Shown: in pieces, positions 1,665-23,742 of the stretch
Position numbering within the stretch: the stretch's first letter is position 1
How the letters are laid out: each line of letters starts with the position of its first letter
NCBI GenBank assembly: GCA_036703195.1
Contig: DATNPN010000018.1
Location: 52,631 to 116,630 of the forward strand
DNA: 64,000 nt
Direction of reading: 5' to 3'
DNA from: Planktothrix sp.
Lineage (GTDB): Bacteria; Cyanobacteriota; Vampirovibrionia; Obscuribacterales; Obscuribacteraceae
Notes under the pieces: generated by a model
What the model was told of the DNA's origin: nothing
Database searches by the model: none
Seen by the model: the letters and a program-made list of their open reading frames with translations, nothing else
Position numbers and translations under genes: made by a program

Positions 1665-2825
1665 ATGGCTGAAATAATCAACGACAAGATTCGCAGCATT
1701 GTCGCGCGAATCGAAGCAGCGCAAGTGATTTCGCCCGAGACGGATATACTCCTCGCGGAGCTGCTGGCGGAAGTGAAGACAAACTGCTCGCATCCGGATA
1801 TCGTCGCGCGCATCGCTGCATACGCGGAGGCGCCCGGTCAGGTTCTTCCCGTCAAGATGGACAGTGACGGTTATGCGCCTGCCTTCGACGTTCTCACTGA
1901 GGAAGCGGAGTTCGTCGATTTCTGGCAACGCAACGGCATTGTTGTCAGCAAGAACGTCGTTTCCAATGCGGTGCGCGAGCGTGCTATCGCCAGGGTGTAC
2001 GAGCTGACTGGCACGATGAGCAACGGCGCCTGCGATCTCACCAAGCCGGAGACCTGGCAGCACATGCCCGTCGACGCGGCAGGAACTCCGCTTCTCTCTC
2101 GCGGCTTTTTCGAGGTGTATCACGACGATACGCTGGCAGCGCTCCGGCAGTCGATTCGGATCTATCTGCACTACGTGCTGATCTGGTCACGATTCGATCT
2201 GTGGACCACGTTCGATCGCATCGGCGTCAAGCTTCCCGGGCACGGCGACGCTAAGGGTCTGCCGCTGCACGTCGATCAGAATCCGAAGGTGCACCCCAAC
2301 TTCCGCACAGTTCAGGGCGTGCTCGCTCTCAGCGACTGCCCAGCCGAGCGTGGAACCTATGTGGGCATTGCCGGCTCCAAGTGCATGTTTCACCGATATT
2401 ACACGCCCAAAGACGAGTATGTCGGTGAGTATGTGGAGCTCGATGTGCGCCGGCCCGACGCCTTGCCGCTTGTAGATCGCGCTCAGCTCTTTCCTCTGCG
2501 TGCCGGCGACCTGGTCAGCTGGGACTCCCGCACAACGCACGCGAATAGCGCCAATCTGTCGAACGATACTCGTATCGTCGCCTACATCGCCGCCGGCTTG
2601 GCGCGCGAGTCGTCGCCAGATGCGGTTCGTGAGCGGGAAGCGGCGTTTCTCACTGGTTTGGGCAGCAATGTTCGCGACGCTTACATGCACGCCAGCATGC
2701 GCCCTCGCTTTACCAATCCCGAGACGATCGCTCGCACTCGCGCTGCCGAACGTCTAACCCTTTTGGGGAGGCTTATCTATGGCAAACAAAGCTACGGCGA
2801 CATCGCCGCTCCGGCTGCTTCTTAA
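1665..2825 (+). CDS. PhyH-family Fe(II)/2-oxoglutarate-dependent dioxygenase
   Basis: It carries an HxD iron-binding motif (LPLHVDQNP) and the distal His in a PhyH-like context (WDSRTTHANSANLS). A GGAG Shine-Dalgarno precedes the ATG at 1665. Confidence 0.7.
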   Translation: MAEIINDKIRSIVARIEAAQVISPETDILLAELLAEVKTNCSHPDIVARIAAYAEAPGQVLPVKMDSDGYAPAFDVLTEEAEFVDFWQRNGIVVSKNVVSNAVRERAIARVYELTGTMSNGACDLTKPETWQHMPVDAAGTPLLSRGFFEVYHDDTLAALRQSIRIYLHYVLIWSRFDLWTTFDRIGVKLPGHGDAKGLPLHVDQNPKVHPNFRTVQGVLALSDCPAERGTYVGIAGSKCMFHRYYTPKDEYVGEYVELDVRRPDALPLVDRAQLFPLRAGDLVSWDSRTTHANSANLSNDTRIVAYIAAGLARESSPDAVREREAAFLTGLGSNVRDAYMHASMRPRFTNPETIARTRAAERLTLLGRLIYGKQSYGDIAAPAAS

Positions 2826-4830
2826 CGCCGAACCGTTCGGGTTCGGTCCTGCCGCCGCAATCGCTGACTGTTTCCCCCATCTGCGCAAATCGTTCGCTCG
2901 CCTCGCCTACGTTGGCAGTGGGCATACGCTCGATCTGCAGCGGCGTCTGCCGTACGATGCGGTGCATGAGGTGAAACCCGGCGATGACGGGGCGCTCGAA
3001 AGCATCTTCAGTCAATACGACTTGATGCTGACAGCGCTCGACTTCGGCATGGCCGCTGCGGCCGAGAAAGCCGGTCTGCCTGTCTGCATCTACGATCCGC
3101 TCACCTGGTACTGGAAAGAGATCCATCCGGCGGCTTCGCGTTGCCGCTTGTACATCGCACAGGACTTCTACGGCGTCAAAGAACGCTTGCACTCCGAAGC
3201 GGAAAAATTCGCTGCACCGCAGGTGGTGCAACCGCTTCTGCCCAGCACGGTGCCCTGGCGCGGCAAACGTGAGCACGTCCTTCTCAACCTGGGCGGGCTC
3301 TCCAATCCGCTCTGGGGCAATGAGGAGACGGTCGGGTACGCCCGTTTGATTGTCTCCTCCTTCTGCCAGGCAATCGACGGCAGGGAGAAAGTAATCATCG
3401 CCGGCAATTCGCTTCTGGCCAGAGAACTGAAAGAGTTCGGTGCCACCAACTTCAGCCGCGAAGAGATGCAGGAGATCCTGCACAAGGCGAAGTATGCACT
3501 GATGACTCCGGGTCTGGGCAACATCTACGATGCGGCCCGCTTCTCTACGCCCACGATATGGCTGCCTCCCGCCAACGACAGCCAGGCACAACAGCGCATC
3601 TTGCTGGGTGTTCATGACCGCTCTGATGGCTCACTCGATTGGAGTCAGTTCGTAACCGGCGCTGAGATCGATTATCACGGCGAACAAAGTGTCATTCTCT
3701 CTCAGATTGCTGCCGCGGTGAAGCGTGCGAACGCAAGCCAACGCAGTAAGAAGCAACTGGTCGGGCTCATGGCGCAACTGGTGAAGAGCATCGACACGAA
3801 AGTGGTTGGAGCGGCTGCCGGTCTGCTTTACGACTTCGGCTGGGATGGCGCCAAACAGGTGGCTGAGCTGGTGGTGCAGCAAGCGCAGCGCCTGTCCGTT
3901 CCGAAGTCGCGAACGAGCCCATACATTGACCTGGGGTTGCCTGGCGATCTGCGGGTGCGCGTCAAACATCCGCAGAAGATCTTCGCTTCGGAGGCGACCA
4001 GGCTGCTGGCTGGCGCATATGTGCCGGGTTTTTCCCTCCATACTTCGGGCTACGCACGGGAGAAGGCGGATCTGACGATCTCCTTCCACGAGAGTCGCGC
4101 CAAGCGCCTCAAAGTGGAGGGCAAGCAGATCGAGCTGCACGACCGTTGGAGCGGCGACGGCTCTACGCTGGACCTGTTGCACTTGATTCACAGCGCTGCC
4201 AGATTGCACTGGCTTCGTCGGGGCTTGTACTCGGTGCATTCGTCCTGCGTCGGCAACGACTCAGGGCATGCGCTCATCGTCGGACACTCCGGCGTGGGCA
4301 AAACCTCGATTGCCCTGGAACTGGTGAAGCGCGGTATGAAGCTGTACTCCGGCAACAAAACACTGGTGTCGGTCTCGGCGGATGGCGCTATCACCGCACA
4401 TGGTGGCACGCGGACGATCACCACGCGGGCTCAGGATGTCACCCGGCATGAGGCGGCTGCAGATGGAGTCGGTTATTCGGAGCGTTGTGCGTTCCTCCTG
4501 GATCCCGACCAATACAGCGCTGATGCAACGGTGAACATCAAGCTCATCGTTTTAGCGAAGCTCAATCCGGGCACCGACGACTTCACTCGCCAGGCCCCGG
4601 GCGGTGCTTTGCACCGGCTGTATCCGTACTTCCTCGACACTGTGAACGCGGACACGGTGTTGTGCGATGGGCACGAAGTCTTCTCCGGCAGCCCCCCTAC
4701 GGGCTGTCAGCGGAGGCTGAGCACAACTTTATCGGTGGCTCTCGGCAAAATTCCGGTATATTCGATGACCGGCAGCATGGAGTACATCACCGCAACGTTG
4801 GAGCGTGAATTATGCCCGACAGGAAAATAG
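2779..4830 (+). CDS. Fusion protein: degenerate GT-B glycosyltransferase-like N-terminal domain plus HPr-kinase/phosphorylase-like P-loop kinase C-terminal domain
   Basis: The C-terminal motif LIVGHSGVGKTSIALELVKRGMKLYSGNKTLV matches the HprK Walker-A/ALEL signature (GDSGVGKSE-ALEL-KRGH-LVADD). The N-terminal about 300 aa parallel the N-terminus of the downstream GT1 gene (…FGFGPAAAIADCFPHL… versus …GIGRGHTIRQVPIVEHF…). The gene overlaps the upstream gene by 47 nt and the downstream gene by 19 nt. GGGGAGG lies 7 nt before the ATG. Confidence 0.65.
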   Translation: MANKATATSPLRLLLNAEPFGFGPAAAIADCFPHLRKSFARLAYVGSGHTLDLQRRLPYDAVHEVKPGDDGALESIFSQYDLMLTALDFGMAAAAEKAGLPVCIYDPLTWYWKEIHPAASRCRLYIAQDFYGVKERLHSEAEKFAAPQVVQPLLPSTVPWRGKREHVLLNLGGLSNPLWGNEETVGYARLIVSSFCQAIDGREKVIIAGNSLLARELKEFGATNFSREEMQEILHKAKYALMTPGLGNIYDAARFSTPTIWLPPANDSQAQQRILLGVHDRSDGSLDWSQFVTGAEIDYHGEQSVILSQIAAAVKRANASQRSKKQLVGLMAQLVKSIDTKVVGAAAGLLYDFGWDGAKQVAELVVQQAQRLSVPKSRTSPYIDLGLPGDLRVRVKHPQKIFASEATRLLAGAYVPGFSLHTSGYAREKADLTISFHESRAKRLKVEGKQIELHDRWSGDGSTLDLLHLIHSAARLHWLRRGLYSVHSSCVGNDSGHALIVGHSGVGKTSIALELVKRGMKLYSGNKTLVSVSADGAITAHGGTRTITTRAQDVTRHEAAADGVGYSERCAFLLDPDQYSADATVNIKLIVLAKLNPGTDDFTRQAPGGALHRLYPYFLDTVNADTVLCDGHEVFSGSPPTGCQRRLSTTLSVALGKIPVYSMTGSMEYITATLERELCPTGK

Positions 4831-5933
4831 TCTACGGCATATGCGGCATCGGCAGGGGTCACACCATCCGCCAGGTGCCGATTGTCGAGCACTTCGCGCG
4901 CCAGAGTCGCCTGGTGATCTTCGCTTACGGCGAAAGTCACAAGTTCTACAGCGACCGTTATCGGGGGCACTCCTCGATAACGGTCGAGCGCGTCTCGGTG
5001 CCGTTTATGGCAGGCGATGCCAACGGACTCGACTTCGCAGCCAGTCTCAGACGGCATGAGCAAGGCGGTGTCGATCACTTCAGCGTCAACTGCAACGCGA
5101 TGGCGCGGGCACAGGCGATTCTGGGGCGACCGGATCTCGTGATCAGTGATTACGAACCGGTCTGTGCCCAATACGCATACGCGTCGGATGCACCATTGGT
5201 GACCATCGACCAGCAGAGCAAATACCTCGTCGGTGACTTTCCCGCGGTCCTGGGCGGGCAGACATATGTCGACGAGATCGCTCGTCTGCGCATGTTTTTC
5301 CCGCGTGCCCAAGCCCGTTTTGCTTGCTCGTTCTTCAACGTGCCACGAGCAGCTGCAGGCCGTGAGGTTGTCGATGTGTGCGCACCAGTGCTCAAGGACT
5401 CCATCTTGAGCATGAAGCGCACGCCCGCGAAAGGTCGCCAATCGATTGTGGTGTACATCTCATCGCAACGCGACTTTGTGCAGGACTTGGGTGAAGTGGC
5501 AGAGATCTGCGCCAAGCAGAAAAGCTGCGACTTTCACTTCTTCGTTCCGGCTGATGTCGCGGCGCGACTGGAAGAGAAGCAAGCGGTGTCTGTGTACAAA
5601 CACGGCGACGCGCGTTTTTCCAGCTTGCTCGAACAGTGCTCAGGGCTGGTGACGACGGGCGGTCACTCGCTTCTGTCGGAAGCCATGCATCTGGGTATGC
5701 CGGCGTACGTGATACCGCTGGCAGTGTACGAGCAGCACATGAATGCTCACGTCATCGATCGTCACGGTTTCGGCGTCAGCCGCCCGTGCGTCGAGTCCCA
5801 GGCGCTGGCGGAGTTCATCGAAGAGCTGCCGGCTTTTGCTCGAGCGATTGAATCAGACAAGGAAGTTCTTCTGCGCGGCTCTGGCGAAGATCACATCATC
5901 GCCAGCCTGGAGCGGCAGTTCTTCCTTCGGTGA
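4812..5933 (+). CDS. GT1-family (MGT/MurG-like) UDP-glycosyltransferase
   Basis: It has the C-terminal nucleotide-sugar signature …GLVTTGGHSLLSEAMHLGMPAYVIPLAVYEQHMNAHVIDRHGFG… and an N-terminal Gly-rich acceptor-domain motif YGICGIGRGH. Confidence 0.65.
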   Translation: MPDRKIVYGICGIGRGHTIRQVPIVEHFARQSRLVIFAYGESHKFYSDRYRGHSSITVERVSVPFMAGDANGLDFAASLRRHEQGGVDHFSVNCNAMARAQAILGRPDLVISDYEPVCAQYAYASDAPLVTIDQQSKYLVGDFPAVLGGQTYVDEIARLRMFFPRAQARFACSFFNVPRAAAGREVVDVCAPVLKDSILSMKRTPAKGRQSIVVYISSQRDFVQDLGEVAEICAKQKSCDFHFFVPADVAARLEEKQAVSVYKHGDARFSSLLEQCSGLVTTGGHSLLSEAMHLGMPAYVIPLAVYEQHMNAHVIDRHGFGVSRPCVESQALAEFIEELPAFARAIESDKEVLLRGSGEDHIIASLERQFFLR

Positions 5934-6007
5934 TAACCTTTAACCCGGTCCAAGAACGCGCGTGCGCAAGCATGCGCATCTTTGACTTCTCTTGAAAGGC
6001 GCGAAAT

Positions 6008-7303
6008 ATGCCAACTTTACGTGAACGGATGGCGAATCTGCTCGCGCGATTGAATATCGGGAGTGTGACCATGAGCTTTACCAAAGATGACGCGACGCGT
6101 GAGCTGGAGCAGTACGCGTCTGATGTGGCGGCGGTGCGAGCAAAGGCGATGGCCTTTCCGAACGGCATCGCTACTGCCGATGCCTGCCTGACGGTTGCCG
6201 ACACCTACTTCTCGTCTGCCAACACGAGTTTTGCCGGCGGACGATGGCAGCAAGCCGTCGACAATCTGACGAGCGGGCGATTCTACCTCGACCTGGCCAC
6301 GGAAGTGGTGGAGGAGTATCAGGCGCAGACTCAGTTCTTCGCGGCTGAAGCGGCGACAAAACTAAAACTGCCCGAGTATCCTGAGCCCAACTACTGCGAC
6401 GGCGATCAGGAGTCGAACAACTACGAGTGGCGCGGACTGGCTCTGCTGCTGGCAAAGGCGGAGGCATCGGTGGACCAGTTCATCCCTGATGACGAGCACG
6501 CTTTGTGGTGCATCGATCAGGCGCTCGACTATCTCAACGAGCTGTACGACACCGATGATTGGGACAACGTCGCGCCGTACTCCCGCGACGGACGCCTCTA
6601 TGCCAATCTGGCGATCGAACTGGTGCGGCAGTTTCTCCAGGCGCGCGATGACCAATCGGCGCTGGCGAAGCTGAAGGACGCGGAGGAAAACTACCTTCTC
6701 GAATTGAGCGAGGAAGACGACGACGACACCAGCGCTGCCGCCGATTGGCTGTGGTCTGCGGTCACCGAAACGCACAAGGGATATCTCGAGTGCCAGCGCG
6801 ATTGCCCCAACACCAAGCTGGTGGCAACGCACATCGAGGAGGCCATCGCTTTTCGCGATGCCGCTCGAGACAAATACTGGGACGAAGAGTGGAACGACGC
6901 CGGTTGGCAGGCATGCGAGGCGGTGTTTCTCGGCAAGCTCGCAGTCGAGATGAGCAGCACGTACGCGCGCGAGGTCCGGTTGTTGGTTGAGGGTCCCGGG
7001 ACGTACGAAGCTGACATCGACGAGGCGGACTACACCGAGGACAGCGACGATAGCGATCGGCAGGATGCTCTCGAGCAGTGGCGTCAAGTCGCCATTCGCG
7101 GAGTCAAAGCGCAGGCGTACCTCGACAGCAAAGCCTCAGGCTTTACGGCTGGCGAAGGCTTCCTGCAAACTGCCATCGGTTACATCGACAACGTCAAGCA
7201 AGCTGATGATTGGGATGATGTGAGCGACCCGCTGCGCGATGCGAAGTACTACTTCAATCTCGCGGTGCAGAAGGCTCGGAGCTTCGTGGCGAATAACCGC
7301 TAA
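6008..7303 (+). CDS. Acidic, Trp-rich hypothetical protein with 3-4 internal repeats of an about 35-aa helical motif
   Basis: Internal repeats are W…DNL…GRFYLDLATEVV, DDWDNVAPYSRDGRLYANLAIELVRQF and DDWDDVSDPLRDAKYYFNLAVQKARSF. There is no signal peptide. A strong terminator follows the gene. Confidence 0.5.
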   Translation: MPTLRERMANLLARLNIGSVTMSFTKDDATRELEQYASDVAAVRAKAMAFPNGIATADACLTVADTYFSSANTSFAGGRWQQAVDNLTSGRFYLDLATEVVEEYQAQTQFFAAEAATKLKLPEYPEPNYCDGDQESNNYEWRGLALLLAKAEASVDQFIPDDEHALWCIDQALDYLNELYDTDDWDNVAPYSRDGRLYANLAIELVRQFLQARDDQSALAKLKDAEENYLLELSEEDDDDTSAAADWLWSAVTETHKGYLECQRDCPNTKLVATHIEEAIAFRDAARDKYWDEEWNDAGWQACEAVFLGKLAVEMSSTYAREVRLLVEGPGTYEADIDEADYTEDSDDSDRQDALEQWRQVAIRGVKAQAYLDSKASGFTAGEGFLQTAIGYIDNVKQADDWDDVSDPLRDAKYYFNLAVQKARSFVANNR

Positions 7304-8368: not shown

Positions 8369-8673
8369 TGCGGGGTTGTTACGTCAAACGTATTGGTAAG
8401 GCGCAAACCAACCAGCGATAGCTAGCAATAGTCGGTGTCGGTGGAAAACACGAATGACATCCGCAGTTTTTCTCTCTTTTTTTGATCTCTGTAAGGCAGG
8501 GTAGGGATATCCATCCGTACACACTTTCATAGACCCAGGAGCAGAGCACACACAGTACTGCTTTTGTACACGAGGCAAACGAACGCCTATTCAACCGCAA
8601 TTCGGCGGTGAATTGGAATGTGTCGCGGATGTCAAATCGCGCAAGCGATCAATCCAGTATCAGGAGAAAAATC

Positions 8674-8940
8674 ATGTTTACCAACGAAACTGAATCGCGC
8701 TCTGAACAGCCGTCCAAGAAGCCCGACACCAACTTTGTAGCCTATGTCGGACCGATGGGCAACCTCCGTCAGGTCTCGCTGGAGCCGGGCACCTACTCGG
8801 TCCAGAAGATTCTCGACACCGCTGGAATGGTAATCAAGCCCGGCTACGAAGCTCGCGTCGATGGTGAGACTGTCTCGCCCTCCACGATCGTCGAGACCGG
8901 CGCCACCGTCTACCTGCTCAAGTCGGTCGCCGGCAACTAA
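8674..8940 (+). CDS. Small ubiquitin-like (beta-grasp) protein, Ubl component of a conjugation-type operon
   Basis: The 88-aa protein has an N-terminal polar tail followed by a beta-grasp-like core (…FVAYVGPMGNLRQVSLEPGTYSVQKILDTAGMVIKPGYEARVDGETVSPSTIVETGATVYLLKSVAGN). AGGAG lies 7 nt upstream. It is the first gene of an operon that also encodes JAB and E1-like proteins. Confidence 0.6.
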   Translation: MFTNETESRSEQPSKKPDTNFVAYVGPMGNLRQVSLEPGTYSVQKILDTAGMVIKPGYEARVDGETVSPSTIVETGATVYLLKSVAGN

Positions 8941-8962
8941 TAGTTGTCGCTCAGCCACTGCC

Positions 8963-8997
8963 GCAAGCAGCCTTCGCTTTACTGGGAGGCTGCTTGC
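8963..8997 (+). promoter_or_regulatory. Intercistronic stem-loop between the Ubl gene and the downstream large gene
   Basis: There is a perfect 10-bp stem GCAAGCAGCC / GGCTGCTTGC with a 15-nt loop and no U-tract. It lies 22 nt after the Ubl stop and 28 nt before the next start. Confidence 0.35.
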
Positions 8998-9025
8998 AAT
9001 GGCCGCAAATGGAAAAGGAGGAAGC

Positions 9026-11068
9026 ATGCATCACCATCGCCTTATTATTCTTCTAGTCTTTTTGATTGTTTCGGCCATCGTGGCTTTGACGCCCGGGTTG
9101 CGGCAAATCTTCATTGACTACTACGTCGCCTTGAGGAGGCGTTTCGGACCCCTGAGCGTCAGCCCGGCTGAGGTGAGGAGCTTTATGCCGCGTGTGCTCA
9201 AGGCTTTGAGCGACCGGTCTTCACTGGCACTCTCGCAGGACAGCGCCGGCACCGTAGCTTTCGAAGGTTTCAACGACTGTTACCGGGCGATCTTCCAGCC
9301 GCTCGTGGCTGCGATACTGGCGCCCGAAGTCGGCGCCTGTCGCGTGAAAAACTGCAACGGCATAGCACAAAGCGCTCCTGCCGACGCAGCGTTTCATATC
9401 CTCGTTTACAGCGCTGCGTCAGGAGTTGCTCAATGTCTCGCACCGGCGCGATACCAGAGAGACGACACTGAGACGATGTTCGCTCCAACCGGTCTTGGCG
9501 TACCGCTTATTGACGATGCTGGTTTTATCGTCGCGGAGTTGGTGGACAACTGCCTTTACGTGTTGGTGAATCCTTTCGTCAACGGCAATCTATCGGAAGC
9601 TCAGTCTTTCGGCGAGGTGCTTCTCAAGGCGAAAGAGGCTCTGCGTCAGTTGAAGAGCGCTGAAAGCGATAGCCTCAGATTCGAGACTGTTGCTGCTGCA
9701 CCAGCGCTTGGACGGTTCTGCGACACCGGCTACGTCGATCGTCAGCGCGAACAGCTGCGCAGCTTACACCGCCAACAGCATGAGCTGTTGTCTTACGAAG
9801 CAGCCGGCAATGGTGCTCCCGAGCGAGAGTTCGAGCAAATTTGCCGCAACTCCAAGGTGCTCAGTGTGAAGGTGACGTATAGAGCAATCATTGTCAGAAC
9901 AGACGTGCTCTACTGCGATAGCAGCTACAACTCGCAGCTGTACGAGATTGGTGCCTTTCGCATCCGCATTCCTTTCTCACCCAGAGGGAACGTGTCCTGG
10001 AGAAACACCACCCGGTTGGTGAGAGCGTATTACGAAAGGCGCTTCCACGCTCCGCACGTGCCGTTCTTTCACAAACCTTGCCTTGGTTCGGCAAAGCACA
10101 CATTCCCCAAGTTGATCCGCGATCGTCAGTTTGCTGCTGCCGTCGACCTGGCCATTGCCTTTGTGCAGTCGGCCAATGAAAACGACCCATGGGGGCGACA
10201 TGTGGTTGATTGGCCAATCGCTCATGTTCGTCATAAGACGAAATACAGGGCGACGAGCTACACATACCTCTTGCCCGTCTCTTGCCGTGAGAAGCTTCGC
10301 GATATCCGATTTAGCGAAGATGGCAATTACCTGGTGGTTGAGGGGCAGGAGTTACAGGCTGCCCTAATCGCCATCGGCAGCGACGCCTACGAGGACGGCA
10401 CGGATCGCGGAAGAGTCGTTCTCAAGCTGACGACGCCCAAGCAAAAGCCTGCTGTTGTTGCAATAGCGGGTGCACGCGAACGATACCTCAGGGCTTGCCG
10501 CGGTCGAGAGGAAGGCGCCAGTGAAGAACTGGTTCGGCAGATTCACGCCTCCACAGTCACTCTGCGTTCATACGAAGAACAGCTCTTCTGGCAGATCCGC
10601 GATCAATTCTGCCGAGAGAGTTCGGACGATGAGCGCGCTGCTAACGCGAAAGAACAGTGGCAGCGGCTGACTCAACATCGCAAGATCGAGCGGGTGCGCG
10701 TGGTCAACGGCACAATCTTGATCGATACGAAAACTCTGTTCGGCAAAAGCCGCAAAACAAAAGAGCTGCACGAGCTGGGAGCGTTCACGATCGCAATCGG
10801 CGCCAACAGCGGCAAGTTCGGCGTGCGCTGGTTTAACCGGACCCGGCGCTCACCCCTGATCGGGATGAATGCCGCCAATGTCTTTGCAGACGGCACACCC
10901 GTTTGCGAGGAGGTGCTCGCCACCCTGCTCGAACTCGGCGCTCGCTGCGAATTCGGTGATGTCGCCAATCTCGCCATTCAATTCGTCGAGGCCGTCAGCG
11001 AGACGTCCGCGGGGTATCTGGATGGATGGCCGAAAGCCCAGGAGGTGAAAGTCCATGCAAACGCCTAA
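9026..11068 (+). CDS. Large operon component: N-terminal TM helix plus two tandem copies of an about 120-aa Cys-containing domain (candidate E2-like/transferase module)
   Basis: The start at 9026 (MHHHRLIILLVFLIVSAIVALTPGL) is preceded by AGGAGG. The internal duplication is …VKVTYRAIIVRTDVLYC…LYEIGAFRIRIPF…HAPHVPFFHKPCLGS…DLAIAFVQSANENDPWG versus …VRVVNGTILIDTKTLFG…LHELGAFTIAIGA…NAANVFADGTPVCEE…NLAIQFVEAVSETSAGYLDGWP. The beta-meander followed by an H-x-P-H…C stretch resembles the UBC fold (HPN…C). The gene overlaps the JAB gene by 14 nt. Confidence 0.5.
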   Translation: MHHHRLIILLVFLIVSAIVALTPGLRQIFIDYYVALRRRFGPLSVSPAEVRSFMPRVLKALSDRSSLALSQDSAGTVAFEGFNDCYRAIFQPLVAAILAPEVGACRVKNCNGIAQSAPADAAFHILVYSAASGVAQCLAPARYQRDDTETMFAPTGLGVPLIDDAGFIVAELVDNCLYVLVNPFVNGNLSEAQSFGEVLLKAKEALRQLKSAESDSLRFETVAAAPALGRFCDTGYVDRQREQLRSLHRQQHELLSYEAAGNGAPEREFEQICRNSKVLSVKVTYRAIIVRTDVLYCDSSYNSQLYEIGAFRIRIPFSPRGNVSWRNTTRLVRAYYERRFHAPHVPFFHKPCLGSAKHTFPKLIRDRQFAAAVDLAIAFVQSANENDPWGRHVVDWPIAHVRHKTKYRATSYTYLLPVSCREKLRDIRFSEDGNYLVVEGQELQAALIAIGSDAYEDGTDRGRVVLKLTTPKQKPAVVAIAGARERYLRACRGREEGASEELVRQIHASTVTLRSYEEQLFWQIRDQFCRESSDDERAANAKEQWQRLTQHRKIERVRVVNGTILIDTKTLFGKSRKTKELHELGAFTIAIGANSGKFGVRWFNRTRRSPLIGMNAANVFADGTPVCEEVLATLLELGARCEFGDVANLAIQFVEAVSETSAGYLDGWPKAQEVKVHANA

Positions 11069-12167
11069 GCCAGAAAAGGCAAAAGCTTCGTCCAAAGACG
11101 AAGAGAGCGGGTTTTTCCAGAAGATGCTGTCGCTGCGTTCGGCCGTGCCGGACGGTGAGACGGTTTTGGTTGAGCCGCCCGTCCTGCCGAAACCCCCCTC
11201 CGCTAACAACAAGCCCAGTGCCAATCCTGCTCCTCTGGGGCTGGGCATCGCCACTCCTCCTCCTCCTTTCGCAAGCGTTTCACCGCTCAGCGATCTACCA
11301 CTGATGCTGCACGATTACCATCCGCGCGCGGAGCTGATTGAGAGACCGCCGGCAGTGTTTCTCACTCCTGAGACATACAAGCGAATCTCTCTATTCATTC
11401 ACGTCGGCAAGCGTGAGGTTGGCTGGATGGGCACCGTAACAAAATCAGAGCAGGGTGACTATTTAATCGATCAAGTCTTCCTGCTGCACCAGAACGTCTC
11501 CGATGTCGAAACTGAGATAACTCGAGATGGGCTGGCCAAGCTCGGTATGGAGCTGCAGCGCCAATACGGCGCCGACACGATCAAGCACGTGAATCGCCTG
11601 CACTTCTGGGGGCATTCGCATGTGCGCATGGGGACGGGACCATCCCCCCGCGACGAAAACACTTCCCTGCGATTCGGCTGGAACGACGACTTTCAACTGC
11701 TCATTCGCGGCATCTTCAACAAGCGCGGACGAGCGGAGTTTGCCATCTATCGTTTCGACAAGGGCATTCGCATCCTCGATGTGCCGTGGGGAATCTATGA
11801 TCCGGCTACAAAATCGGTTCTCTATCTGCGCCAAAAAGAAAAACCGTTTTTCTTCGCCAATGGACCGGCGTACAGCCAGATGCAACCTCCATCGACTGTG
11901 GCAAGCGCCGTCACGGCTTCAACGCAGAAGTTGAAAACGGCGGTGGTGAATGAGGTGAGACAGTCCGTCGACAGTGTCACCGCCATGTTCGATAAAGAGC
12001 TGACGCTGGAGCAGAAGTTCGCTGGGCTGCCTGAGCTGCTCCGCCCCACCCAGGCAGAGTTGCAAGCAGTGCAGAGCGAATACGACGAAAAAGTAGTCGA
12101 GCATATCGTGCCCGGCTTCACCAAAGTGCGCGAGTGGGTGGGTGCGCTGAAACGGAGCATAAAATGA
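11055..12167 (+). CDS. JAB/MPN+ (JAMM) metallopeptidase with a Pro-rich N-terminal extension
   Basis: It has a perfect JAMM motif: Glu (KREVGWMG) followed by HFWGHSHVRMGTGPSPRD, which is H-x-H-x7-S-x2-D. AGGAGG lies upstream. Its stop overlaps the E1 start in the sequence AATGA. Confidence 0.75.
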   Translation: MQTPKPEKAKASSKDEESGFFQKMLSLRSAVPDGETVLVEPPVLPKPPSANNKPSANPAPLGLGIATPPPPFASVSPLSDLPLMLHDYHPRAELIERPPAVFLTPETYKRISLFIHVGKREVGWMGTVTKSEQGDYLIDQVFLLHQNVSDVETEITRDGLAKLGMELQRQYGADTIKHVNRLHFWGHSHVRMGTGPSPRDENTSLRFGWNDDFQLLIRGIFNKRGRAEFAIYRFDKGIRILDVPWGIYDPATKSVLYLRQKEKPFFFANGPAYSQMQPPSTVASAVTASTQKLKTAVVNEVRQSVDSVTAMFDKELTLEQKFAGLPELLRPTQAELQAVQSEYDEKVVEHIVPGFTKVREWVGALKRSIK

Positions 12168-12871
12168 ATCAGAATCCGATTAACACGTCTCGCCTGGTTG
12201 AGGTTTTCTCGGCGGAGGCTTTCGACAACCGGCGTATCGATGTGATTGGAGCCGGCGCTACAGGGAGCAAAGTGGTTCTGGAGCTGGCAAAAGCCGGGCT
12301 GGACGATATTCACGTCTACGACTTCGACACCGTCGCGCACGAGAACATCGGCAATCAGGCGTACCGTCGTGAACGCGACATCGACCAACTCAAGGTAGAT
12401 GCGCTTCAAAACCTGGTCTACGAGGCCACCGGTCTGAAGGTCAATACTCACGCAGAACGAGTAGACGGCTCGCAAGAGCTGGGAGACATCGTCTTCCTGC
12501 TGACAGACCGCATGGACTCTCGCAAACAGATCTTCGAGAGCTCCATCAAATACAACATGAACGTCCAACTGATGATCGAGACGCGCATGGGCGTAGACCA
12601 GGGGCGCGTGTACGCAGTCAATCCGAATGACTCCGTACACGTTCGTGCCTGGACGAAAACACTGTGCGACGATGTGGTCACCGAAACTTCCGCTTGCGGT
12701 ACCAAAATCAGCGTCGGCCCCACAGCCGGCATCATCGCCAATTATGCGATGTGGGCACTGTTTCGTTGGTCTGCTCTGCAAATCAACCCGGACGGCGAAG
12801 ACAAGCTGGAAAATGAGTTGATCGTCAGTCTGCGCCCGCCGGCGCTGATGACGCGCTTCTTCAACCGGTAA
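12164..12871 (+). CDS. Minimal E1-like (ThiF/MoeB/HesA superfamily) adenylyltransferase
   Basis: It has a Rossmann GxGxxG motif (IDVIGAGATGSKVVLELAKAGL) and a ThiF-type motif YDFDTVAHENIGNQ (compare D-x-D-x-V-x-x-S-N-L-N-R-Q). A candidate catalytic Cys lies in ETSACGT. The protein is 235 aa. Confidence 0.8.
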   Translation: MNQNPINTSRLVEVFSAEAFDNRRIDVIGAGATGSKVVLELAKAGLDDIHVYDFDTVAHENIGNQAYRRERDIDQLKVDALQNLVYEATGLKVNTHAERVDGSQELGDIVFLLTDRMDSRKQIFESSIKYNMNVQLMIETRMGVDQGRVYAVNPNDSVHVRAWTKTLCDDVVTETSACGTKISVGPTAGIIANYAMWALFRWSALQINPDGEDKLENELIVSLRPPALMTRFFNR

Positions 12872-22602: not shown

Positions 22603-23742
22603 TCAGGCTGCCTTCAGCTGTTTTTCGCGCACCAGCTTCAAGATCTTGCCGCACTTTTGCTTGTGCGTGGAGTTGCACTCGTCTCCGGGCACCAGTCCGT
22701 ACAACCGGGCGCGTTGCTCCTTGATGTTGGCGGAGCACGTCGCAGCCTTGACGATCTGTTTTCTGATGCGCTCGGCTTTGCCGCGCACATCAGCGGAGAG
22801 GTCTGCGAATTTGCTCTCGTACGTGCCGTTGATCAAGCTGTTCATCACGTAGCCGACGGAGAGCTTGGCGCCGATCCAGCGACTGATGTACGACTTGAAC
22901 TTGTACTTGACGCGCTCGCCATCGTCGAAGCGAACAACGAAGCCCTCCTGATTGAGATAGCGGCTCTTGCGCACGTAGCTATCGAGCACCTCCAGCGACT
23001 CGACCTTGAACTCCTCCGCCAGCTTGACGCCCAGCTTCTTGCTGAGCGCGACGAGCTCCTTATCGGAGAAGTCGTGGAACGTGTTGCGGTCGAAGGCGCC
23101 CAGAAGGATAAAGCCTTCTTTGTCGTAATCGACGATGACATGCGTCGTCGGGTGAATCACCTCGAGCAAAACTGTGACGTCGTCCGGCATTGAGGTTGCC
23201 CACTTCTGGCGGAATACATCAAGCATCTTATCGGCCACCTTGGACGTGTGGCTGATGAAACTGCCGCGCGTGGTGCCGACAATCTCACCTTGATACTTGA
23301 AGGTGATGAGCAGGTGTCCGTCGTACTTGCGGCGCACGACGAACTTGCCGCCAGGGAGCGGCTTGGTGATCTGCTTCTCTTCGCCGAAGTTGAAGAACTT
23401 CGGGAAGGGAAACGCCACCAGGTTAACATCGCGGTCGAAGATGATGCCGCGACACAAGCACAACGTGGGCGTCCAGCCGTTCTCGAAGGCGTGCAGGGTA
23501 AACTGCGCAATCTCCGAGTAGTTGAGACCAATCAGCGGTAAAGTCGGGTGGAAAAACGGCTTCACCAGGTTGGTGATGGACGGCATGCCCAGACCTTGTT
23601 CATAGCCGAACCATTTGCGCATGCGCTCCGCATTTTCTGCGTTGTCGCGCCAGGCCTTCCACGTCGTCCAGTCATTGACGCCGGCTTCAACGAGCGCGCC
23701 GACGAATTGGCGCAGATTCTGCACCGCATTCTTTGTCTTCAT
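22603..23742 (-). CDS. ATP-dependent RNA ligase (Rnl-type covalent nucleotidyltransferase)
   Basis: It has nucleotidyltransferase motif I KYDGH (KxDG), motif III-like FILLGAF, motif IV EGFVVRFDDG and motif V VKYKFKSY. The C-terminal region is Cys-containing. The length of about 380 aa fits the Rnl3/Pab1020-like or Rnl5-like families. Confidence 0.7.
   Translation of the reverse strand: MKTKNAVQNLRQFVGALVEAGVNDWTTWKAWRDNAENAERMRKWFGYEQGLGMPSITNLVKPFFHPTLPLIGLNYSEIAQFTLHAFENGWTPTLCLCRGIIFDRDVNLVAFPFPKFFNFGEEKQITKPLPGGKFVVRRKYDGHLLITFKYQGEIVGTTRGSFISHTSKVADKMLDVFRQKWATSMPDDVTVLLEVIHPTTHVIVDYDKEGFILLGAFDRNTFHDFSDKELVALSKKLGVKLAEEFKVESLEVLDSYVRKSRYLNQEGFVVRFDDGERVKYKFKSYISRWIGAKLSVGYVMNSLINGTYESKFADLSADVRGKAERIRKQIVKAATCSANIKEQRARLYGLVPGDECNSTHKQKCGKILKLVREKQLKAA

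Follow-up and report, generated by a model that had tools for sequence, protein, structure and literature searches.

A horizontally spread four-enzyme cassette uniting a PhyH-family dioxygenase, two glycosyltransferases and a P-loop phosphotransferase-like protein

Hydroxylation followed by glycosylation is a strategy common to several described modification systems. In the base J (JBP/JGT), Skp1 hydroxyproline and collagen hydroxylysine glycosylation systems, a 2-oxoglutarate (2OG) oxygenase makes or modifies a hydroxyl group, which glycosyltransferases then extend. Other known enzymes resemble single parts of the locus that we analyse here: SnoK and SnoN, two PhyH-family 2OG oxygenases from the nogalamycin pathway, take a glycoside's sugar as their target; CGA synthases of the BlsD/MilC type N-glycosylate free cytosine and have CMP hydrolase and hydroxymethylase as partners in nucleoside-antibiotic pathways; and the HPr kinase/phosphorylase (HprK/P), a protein kinase, has a number of related kinases (HprK_rel_A/B, ScmC, lasso-peptide kinases), some of which phosphorylate lasso peptides. 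In the GAK system, an HprK-related kinase B is found with ATP-grasp and amphi-Trp proteins. The present study concerns positions 1665-5933 of a 64,000-nucleotide stretch (hereafter the window) of contig DATNPN010000018.1, from a metagenome-assembled genome (MAG) labelled Planktothrix sp. This locus is one copy of a conserved, self-contained and horizontally spread cassette of four enzymes, two of whose genes are fused, and a search of the searchable literature returned no description of the combination.

The four enzymes are a PhyH-family Fe(II)/2OG dioxygenase, a glycosyltransferase of GT-B fold that we call GTx, a P-loop phosphotransferase-like protein of the PEPCK/HprK fold, and a second GT-B glycosyltransferase of family Glyco_trans_1_3 (GT1_3, written GT13 in fusion names). 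All four come from known superfamilies and miss membership of the specific known families on score and, for HprK, also on its Asp pair. The base J, Skp1 and collagen systems employ other enzyme families (TET/JBP or P4H in place of PhyH, GT-A or others in place of GT1-like GT-B), and none of them has an enzyme of the HprK/PEPCK fold. As a tentative reading, which we rate somewhat below an even chance, the cassette would work in the cytoplasm on a small acceptor, probably derived from a nucleotide, and turn it into a phosphorylated, oxidised diglycoside.

Gene structure, recurrence and modularity of the cassette

The cassette occupies three open reading frames (ORFs) on the plus strand of the window, at 1665-2825 (gene 1, 386 aa), 2779-4830 (gene 2, 683 aa) and 4812-5933 (gene 3, 373 aa). 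An earlier note on this DNA, made from its letters alone, had claimed overlaps of 47 nt and 19 nt, and these lie exactly where it placed them (2779..2825 and 4812..4830). It had further claimed co-translation. Because a separate Shine-Dalgarno site for each internal start lies within the preceding gene, read from the sequence 8 nt 5' of the start codon (GGGAGG at 2765..2770 in gene 1 for ATG2779; GGAG at 4800..4803 in gene 2 for ATG4812, both on the plus strand), and because both starts agree with the N-termini of homologues, translational coupling of the three genes is plausible. An overlap of the gene 1/gene 2 type is also present in homologous loci, for instance over 29 nt in L004.

A scan of one genome per species, with the four components tabulated at each locus, yielded 79 loci. 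The canonical order, PhyH, GTx, P-loop, GT1_3, occurs as four unfused genes in 29 species-representative genomes, and the Obscuribacterales genomes carry four separate genes in this order. Rearranged or fused cassettes bring in about 20 further genomes, for a total of about 50 loci. Among the other layouts are GTx, P-loop and GT13 without PhyH, cassettes divided into divergent halves, and a type II order in which a P-loop::GT13 fusion is followed by GTx, with PhyH either before or after.

The fusion of GTx and P-loop protein seen in the window is also present in L001 and L002, and further fusions join P-loop::GT13, GT13::GTx and PhyH::GTx. The longest are P-loop::GT13::X::GTx (1125-1443 aa, where X is an additional domain described below) and GTx::P-loop::GT13 (about 1070-1100 aa). 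These fusion patterns, at least six in number, are mutual Rosetta-stone fusions, and the fusion in the window is therefore one of several independent ones. It shows 40% identity to the fused proteins of L001 and L002 and 57-60% to the unfused GTx proteins of Obscuribacterales; most homologues of its GTx half are stand-alone proteins of about 380 aa, and those of its P-loop half are stand-alone proteins of about 295 aa. The earlier note was thus right that gene 2 is a real fusion, but the architecture is less unusual than it supposed, since the fusion joins two genes that are adjacent in the cassette and follows one of at least six patterns.

Cassettes were found in Obscuribacterales and other Melainabacteria, several classes of Patescibacteria, Micavibrio, Bdellovibrionales, Chlamydiae and TM6, as well as in a Nanoarchaeia MAG, a MAG labelled Methanosarcinales, uncultured Alpha- and Gammaproteobacteria, Endozoicomonas and Kistimonas. 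Most of these lineages depend on other cells, as symbionts, predators or intracellular parasites. From one phylum to another, the cassette proteins remain 40-60% identical. The P-loop family has few members and sharp limits: of 1.84 billion representatives, 213 clusters pass E<=1e-30 and 340 pass E<=1e-10. Composition was considered as a sign of recent horizontal acquisition and rejected: the GC content of the cassette (0.59-0.60) is no outlier against the window mean of 0.56 (standard deviation 0.03). Since the window has 56% GC and its closest cassette homologues come from Obscuribacterales and Melainabacteria, the Planktothrix sp. label of the source MAG (protein V6C81_12995) is doubtful.

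Several loci depart from the general picture. Streptomyces, Pseudomonas and Kofleriaceae have GTx alone, in a different subfamily context. In three Pseudomonas loci (L078, L079 and L089, from P. alliivorans, P. viridiflava and P. cerasi), GTx, at about 9980-12150, overlaps a downstream gene that is GT4-like by eye; earP-/efp-like ORFs lie about 5 kb from GTx in two of the three, probably by coincidental synteny. In one uncultured lineage (L002:6856-9962 and L003), the ribosomal-protein gene cluster is interrupted between rplA and rplJ by a GT1_3 gene and the GTx::P-loop fusion. In an Alphaproteobacteria MAG (L032:8894-13132), PhyH and GT1_3 are each split into two ORFs, which suggests a decaying cassette or sequencing frameshifts.

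To describe the surroundings of the cassette, 132 immediate neighbours at about 50 loci were surveyed and the 25 most recurrent families listed. Apart from the partners discussed below, flanking genes are unrelated from locus to locus. Families of nonribosomal peptide or polyketide synthesis, of ribosomally synthesised peptides with post-translational modifications (RiPPs), of polysaccharides and of lipopolysaccharide (LPS) are all absent from the 25 listed. The earlier note had seen in the window a recurring logic of natural-product or peptide tailoring. This does not hold, as it is always a self-contained set of these four enzymes that recurs, between otherwise unrelated flanks and outside any larger cluster of that kind. 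Its observation that precursor peptide, transporter and core biosynthetic enzyme are lacking is borne out near the window cassette. Nor were homologues found in LPS or capsule loci; a uniform occurrence there would, according to the note, have spoken against it.

Folds and catalytic motifs of the four enzymes

Gene 1 (1665..2825, plus strand) encodes the dioxygenase, as the earlier note had proposed. It matches PF05721 with an E-value of 1e-11 and 46 bits (gathering cut-off 22) over profile positions 1-212 of 213, and extends beyond this core by about 85 aa at its N-terminus and about 80 aa at its C-terminus. The HxD motif of the iron-binding facial triad, H202-V-D204, is encoded at 2268..2276 according to homologue conservation, and the stretch at 2538..2573 runs from H292 (the presumed distal iron ligand, within WDSRTTH) to R303 (the presumed 2OG-binding Arg), these two roles being assigned from the PhyH family. 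Among the 30-38 aligned homologues, D204, H292 and R303 are invariant and H202 is at least 90% conserved. As the triad keeps its Asp, the enzyme is of the oxygenase rather than the halogenase type. Among solved structures, a profile of 30 cassette dioxygenases matches SnoK (E 1.4e-8) and SnoN (E 1e-3) best. They share the iron-binding triad, but the likeness is confined to about 100 residues in the C-terminal half; the cassette enzyme exceeds them in length by about 100 aa and has conserved extensions at both termini, and the polyketide context of SnoK and SnoN is absent around the cassette.

GTx forms the N-terminal half of gene 2 (residues 1 to about 385, 2779..3933, plus strand). No Pfam model matches it; the only match, over residues 72-366 (E 1.6e-19), is to TIGR04467, a CGA synthase model whose name gives (hydroxymethyl)cytosylglucuronate as the product. 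This model is also matched over nearly its full length by 50 of 50 GTx homologues (best E 4e-24), two of which weakly match other models. At 70-73 bits, the protein of the window is below the equivalog cut-off of 300 and misses the family threshold. It has the GT-B fold and the conserved donor-site motif expected of a CGA synthase. This motif, MTPGLGNIYDAARFSTPTIWLPPANDSQAQQ (3502..3594, plus strand), lies in the C-terminal domain at the position where, judging from MurG and GT1, an enzyme of GT1/GT28 type would bind its nucleotide sugar; G245, L246, P263 and Q272 are invariant or nearly so among homologues. A sequence search of GTx against solved structures returned no match. The earlier note had taken this half for a degenerate GT-B domain, a view that can be abandoned because dozens of its residues are invariant among homologues: GTx is an intact glycosyltransferase. 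It nevertheless differs in context from the CGA synthases, with which it has the GT-B fold in common. These are carried by actinomycete producers, whereas cassette carriers are mostly uncultured MAGs, and the CMP hydrolase, hydroxymethylase, radical-SAM and aminotransferase genes of CGA pathways appear neither among the 25 listed neighbour families nor in the window, although no targeted search for them was made.

Gene 3 (4812..5933, plus strand) encodes the second GT-B glycosyltransferase, related to MJ1255/VC2487, and here too the assignment of the earlier note, GT1, stands. The match to PF13528 (E 2e-33, 116 bits) exceeds the cut-off of 25, that to TIGR00661 (116 bits) is below the cut-off of 195.9, and the full length of both models is covered. 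The donor-site motif TGGHSLLSE (5655-5681, plus strand) is conserved, and 44 residues are invariant across 49 homologues. Literature searches returned no functional study of the MJ1255/VC2487 family (TIGR00661), which is uncharacterised. YjiC is the best solved relative of gene 3 by sequence, and the closest structural relatives of the two glycosyltransferases are promiscuous GT1 enzymes (YojK, YjiC and the CalG proteins). Such relatives would suit the inactivation of an exogenous toxin or antibiotic, an alternative that the earlier note had offered, in phase I/II style, by hydroxylation and then glycosylation, phosphorylation and a further glycosylation. Antibiotics are known to be inactivated by glycosylation as well as by phosphorylation, and 12 of 63 homologues of the P-loop domain weakly match the FomB model of fosfomycin-resistance kinases. 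The fixed gene order, the 40-60% identity across phyla and the repeated fusions suggest instead one defined pathway; apart from two major facilitator superfamily (MFS) genes, the listed neighbour families show no linkage to efflux pumps or resistance regulators; and the exported-looking versions in intracellular bacteria described below fit poorly. We regard detoxification as a very improbable function of the cassette.

The C-terminal half of gene 2 (residues 386-683, 3934..4830, plus strand) is a P-loop phosphotransferase-like domain with a PEPCK-like P-loop fold. Residues 498-532 match Hpr_kinase_C and HprK_rel_B, both below threshold: the domain scores 25.1 bits against PF07475 (cut-off 33.3), 23-25 bits against TIGR00679 (cut-off 240) and 22-24 bits against HprK_rel_B (cut-off 200). 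Weak matches of its homologues are to HprK_rel_B (37 of 63), HprK_rel_A, hpr-ser, FomB and ScmC, and a profile of the family matched solved structures only at the level of the P-loop; its fold, like that of GTx, had to be sought by a fold search. Both features on which the earlier note had made its HprK assignment depend are present. The Walker A motif GHSGVGKT (residues 502-509, 4282..4305, plus strand) aligns with GDSGIGKS of HprK, its residues G117, G122 and K123 (C-domain numbering) being invariant; GHSGVGKTSIALELVKRG aligns with the HprK structure 1ko7 across Walker A (GxSGxGK[ST]) and the ALELxxRG helix, and Walker A and the 'ALEL' helix are likewise present where HMMER aligned GHSGVGKTSIALELVKRGMKLYSGNK with HprK.

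The HprK-like fold, Walker A and ALEL helix are therefore retained, but the catalytic centre is not that of HprK. In the HMMER alignment to 1ko7, S-G-N-K-T (4348..4362, plus strand) stands at the site of A-D-D-N-V, and where HprK has its Asp-Asp pair (LVADD) the domain has Gly-Asn and then an invariant Lys (aligned residues L-Y-S-G-N-K). Of two P-loop alignments, at least one shows S139, K142 and T143 to be invariant, and the conservation of N141 is 90% or more. In HprK, the Asp pair provides a metal ligand and the catalytic base, and PEPCK has the same pair. To judge from these residues, the domain may be an unconventional kinase, if it is a kinase at all. The GAK system differs further from the window: besides the sub-threshold score to HprK_rel_B, no ATP-grasp gene lies near the cassette, and its Trp-rich neighbour has no NCBIfam match.

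As the nearest named relatives of the P-loop domain (HprK/P, HprK-related A/B and ScmC) are protein or peptide kinases, the main rival to a small-molecule pathway is the post-translational modification of a protein or peptide. The dioxygenase would hydroxylate a side chain, the GT-B pair would assemble an O-linked disaccharide and the HprK-like domain would phosphorylate a Ser/Thr or the glycan, much as in the Skp1 hydroxyproline and collagen hydroxylysine systems. The target would be either a widely conserved protein or one of the Trp-rich and repeat proteins encoded downstream of the cassette. The alignment of Walker A and ALEL helix with a true protein kinase agrees with this proposal. On the other hand, Asn stands in place of the Asp with which HprK deprotonates Ser46 of HPr, both glycosyltransferases resemble small-molecule and lipid enzymes of GT1/GT28 type rather than known protein glycosyltransferases, and PhyH-family enzymes of known substrate act mostly on small molecules. 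Further evidence on both sides comes from the surroundings of the cassette and from its exported-looking versions; taken as a whole, we consider protein modification unlikely.

Recurrent partners, surroundings and the proposed pathway

The most frequent neighbour family of the cassette is NTPase_I-T (YjjX type), which occurs at eight loci. Depending on the locus, its gene lies on the same strand as the cassette, diverges from it or converges with it, and in two cases it is doubled in tandem; the 5' end of the PhyH-less cassettes L038 and L093 is formed by it. NUDIX genes adjoin the cassette at two loci, and in P0179 and P0222 a fused NUDIX domain precedes the P-loop protein at its N-terminus. 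In the variant cassettes L091 (NUDIX) and L093 (NTPase_I-T), the two hydrolases occupy the same slot directly 5' of the P-loop gene. Both families are grouped as 'house-cleaning' hydrolases of non-canonical nucleotides (PMC3899018). A His_Phos_1 phosphatase follows the cassette in one Obscuribacterales clade, and S-adenosyl methionine (SAM) methyltransferases recur near it at four loci.

Some of these loci have features of their own. Variant cassettes in L091:2922-7835, L092 and L093:3231-6839 have the order NUDIX (fused) or NTPase_I-T, then P-loop, GT1_3 and a classical UDPGT-type GT1, which replaces GTx; PhyH is absent. In L091, a SAM methyltransferase and an unknown 235-aa protein precede the cassette and a Bro-N domain gene lies nearby. 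In Chlamydiales (L083:9995-11818), a single ORF contains a truncated GTx (residues 3-311) and an MFS_1 transporter that has seven hydrophobic segments. It may be a genuine fusion, or else an artefact of assembly or of a pseudogene.

We favour a small acceptor because both glycosyltransferases are of GT1/CGA-synthase character, the dioxygenase resembles SnoK and one GTx is joined to an MFS transporter, and the NTPase_I-T/NUDIX linkage together with the CGA-synthase relationship points to a nucleobase, nucleoside or nucleotide. In the pathway that we propose, the acceptor would be small, soluble and cytoplasmic, and most likely of one of these three types. GTx would first move a sugar from a nucleoside diphosphate (NDP)-sugar to the acceptor, and the dioxygenase would then hydroxylate or otherwise oxidise either this sugar or the aglycone. 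The P-loop enzyme, acting as a kinase, would transfer a phosphoryl group from ATP or pyrophosphate to a hydroxyl. Addition of a second sugar by GT1_3 would complete a phosphorylated, oxidised diglycoside. None of the cassette proteins of the window has a hydrophobic segment, and for this reason they are likely cytoplasmic.

A number of observations weigh against this pathway. Every chemical step in it is read from family resemblance. The kinship of the P-loop domain with protein and peptide kinases favours a protein or peptide target, and the absence of the HprK Asp-Asp pair means that the domain may not be a conventional kinase. The match of GTx to the CGA synthase model, at about 70 bits, is far under the family threshold of 300, and neither CMP hydrolase nor hydroxymethylase is among the 25 listed neighbour families. 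Linkage to NTPase_I-T or NUDIX is found at only 11-12 of about 55 loci, some of which share ancestry, and is absent from the window. Finally, one cassette locus lies inside a ribosomal-protein operon and the Chlamydiae/TM6 versions look exported, both of which would also fit a macromolecular target.

The same nucleotide-related evidence can be turned towards the hypermodification of RNA or DNA bases. By analogy with base J (JBP and JGT) or with the glucosylated hydroxymethylcytosine of T-even phages, the oxygenase would hydroxylate a base or methyl group, the GT-B enzymes would glycosylate it, the P-loop protein would activate or phosphorylate it, and NTPase_I-T and NUDIX would clear the modified nucleotides released. 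The linkage to house-cleaning nucleoside triphosphate hydrolases accords with this scheme, as does the nearest family of GTx, which by model name makes a cytosine or hydroxymethylcytosine glycoside; the hydroxymethylcytosine glucosyltransferases of phage T4 have the GT-B fold, and a universal target would explain the spread of the cassette across bacteria and archaea. However, the 2.9 million viral contigs of IMG/VR yielded no relatives of either GTx or the P-loop protein, the dioxygenase is of PhyH rather than TET/JBP or AlkB type, and restriction-modification and nucleic-acid-binding domains are missing from the 25 listed neighbour families. PADLOC gave no defence-system match beyond a weak one of the P-loop segment to mad8 (E 6.6e-4). 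Base hypermodification is in our view very unlikely. On the same IMG/VR and PADLOC results, a phage or defence origin of the cassette was rejected.

A third possibility, of which the earlier note had also thought, is the remodelling of a lipid or envelope glycoconjugate. GT-B enzymes resembling MurG and monogalactosyldiacylglycerol (MGD) synthases would attach two sugars to an acceptor that is lipid-linked or in the membrane, alongside hydroxylation of an acyl chain or head group and phosphorylation. PhyH proper hydroxylates an acyl-CoA, and many of the carrier lineages have reduced lipid biosynthesis. However, genes for polysaccharide, LPS or capsule are missing from the listed neighbour families, as are flippases and enzymes of polyprenyl phosphate; type I cassette proteins have no membrane segment; and some of the carriers are MAGs with an archaeal label, whose envelopes differ. 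A role in the envelope seems to us about as improbable as detoxification.

The surroundings of the window cassette bear mainly on protein modification. An acidic Trp-rich protein is encoded directly downstream (6008-7303), with about four helical repeats by eye; NCBI annotates it from a later start, as 410 aa. This protein is an ORFan, only itself being found among 5.8 billion proteins, and its GC and GC3 (third codon position) are in line with those of the cassette. No NCBIfam model matches it; NCBIfam presumably includes an amphi-Trp model, in which case the protein lacks a match to that model too. The neighbours of the cassette in the window (a DUF4388-GGDEF protein and the Trp-rich, repeat, 735-aa and 370-aa proteins) were found at no other cassette locus. 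The Trp-rich and repeat proteins, which the earlier note had put forward as possible substrates, were accordingly rejected as conserved partners. Small ORFs were also considered as RiPP precursors. Between 1254 and 1664, those of at least 20 aa are only short, TTG-started and without homologues, and the gap at 5934-6007 is too short for an ORF. Where small ORFs flanking more than 40 cassettes were compared, conservation was seen only among close relatives and none across phyla. A RiPP precursor was thus rejected, and both results count against a protein or peptide substrate; the cassette inserted between rplA and rplJ counts in favour of one.

Other features of the window lie apart from the cassette. 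The DUF4388 and GGDEF protein is encoded upstream of it at 12-1253, and a homologue of T4-type RNA ligase well downstream, at 22603-23742 on the minus strand; neither is linked to the cassette elsewhere. A separate operon at 8608-12871 resembles a ubiquitin-like conjugation system. It comprises a 110-aa ORF (8608-8940), the unknown 735-aa protein (8861-11068), with two apparent internal repeats by eye, the 370-aa protein (11055-12167), which has an exact JAMM motif, HSHVRMGTGPSPRD (H-x-H-x7-S-x2-D), and a ThiF/E1-like gene (12134-12871). PADLOC, run on two proteins of this operon, gave no match.

Exported-looking versions in Chlamydiae and TM6

In the type II loci of Chlamydiae and TM6 (L009, L046, L050, L051 and L053), every cassette protein read (P0101-P0120, P0259, P0261, P0274 and P0276, covering PhyH, P-loop::GT13 and [X::]GTx) begins with a hydrophobic, signal-peptide-like N-terminus, which in P0261 (P-loop::GT13) is a bilobed pair of helices. 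A hydrophobicity criterion applied before the start of homology was positive for 10 of 15 Chlamydiae/TM6 proteins, for 2 of 189 type I and GTx-alone proteins and for none of 16 Endozoicomonas-type proteins. These N-termini suggest that in Chlamydiae and TM6 the whole pathway may be exported, presumably to the host cytosol. Judging by their families, the enzymes should need ATP, NDP-sugars and 2OG, which are expected only in the cytosol, and for this reason exported versions would presumably act in that of the host. If so, their substrate should be one that is present in both bacteria and eukaryotes. Signal-peptide-like N-termini would also be expected of secreted effectors that modify their host, which is in line with protein modification.

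Type II cassettes also contain a fifth conserved domain of about 290 aa, X, fused N-terminal to GTx or located between GT13 and GTx. It corresponds to the N-terminal ~300 aa of P0101-P0120, to L009:8001-8850, to L046:9110-10000 and to residues 729-1059 of the ORF at 6821-11152 in L059. Domain X has alternating invariant charged residues (K37, E112, R114, K176, E180, E202 and D204) and no Pfam or PDB profile match. These residues recall CYTH/triphosphate-tunnel enzymes, a resemblance that found no support in Pfam, in a PDB profile search or in an hhalign comparison with E. coli YgiF.

Returning to the synthesis of a phosphorylated diglycoside, the exported-looking versions allow an extension that we put forward as a decidedly unlikely one: the cassette could be a portable 'effector pathway' of host- or prey-dependent microbes. 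From a universal metabolite of nucleotide type it would make a phosphorylated diglycoside private to the microbe, to serve as an antimetabolite, or as a reserved nutrient or signal in the manner of opines. Melainabacteria, the candidate phyla radiation (CPR), DPANN and predators would run the pathway in their own cytoplasm, and Chlamydiae and TM6 would deliver the dioxygenase, the P-loop::GT fusion and GTx to the cytosol of the host. If this is true, the exported Chlamydiae/TM6 proteins would constitute an unusual secreted multi-enzyme pathway.

The cassette is rare, yet it is spread at 40-60% identity over mostly cell-dependent lineages, including Saccharibacteria and other CPR, Nanoarchaeia, Chlamydiae and TM6. 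Within it, GTx and the P-loop protein form two sharply delimited subfamilies without a Pfam match above threshold. Identification of the product would assign a function to four 'hypothetical' families at once, and could reveal a new nucleoside or glycoside metabolite in symbiosis or predation.

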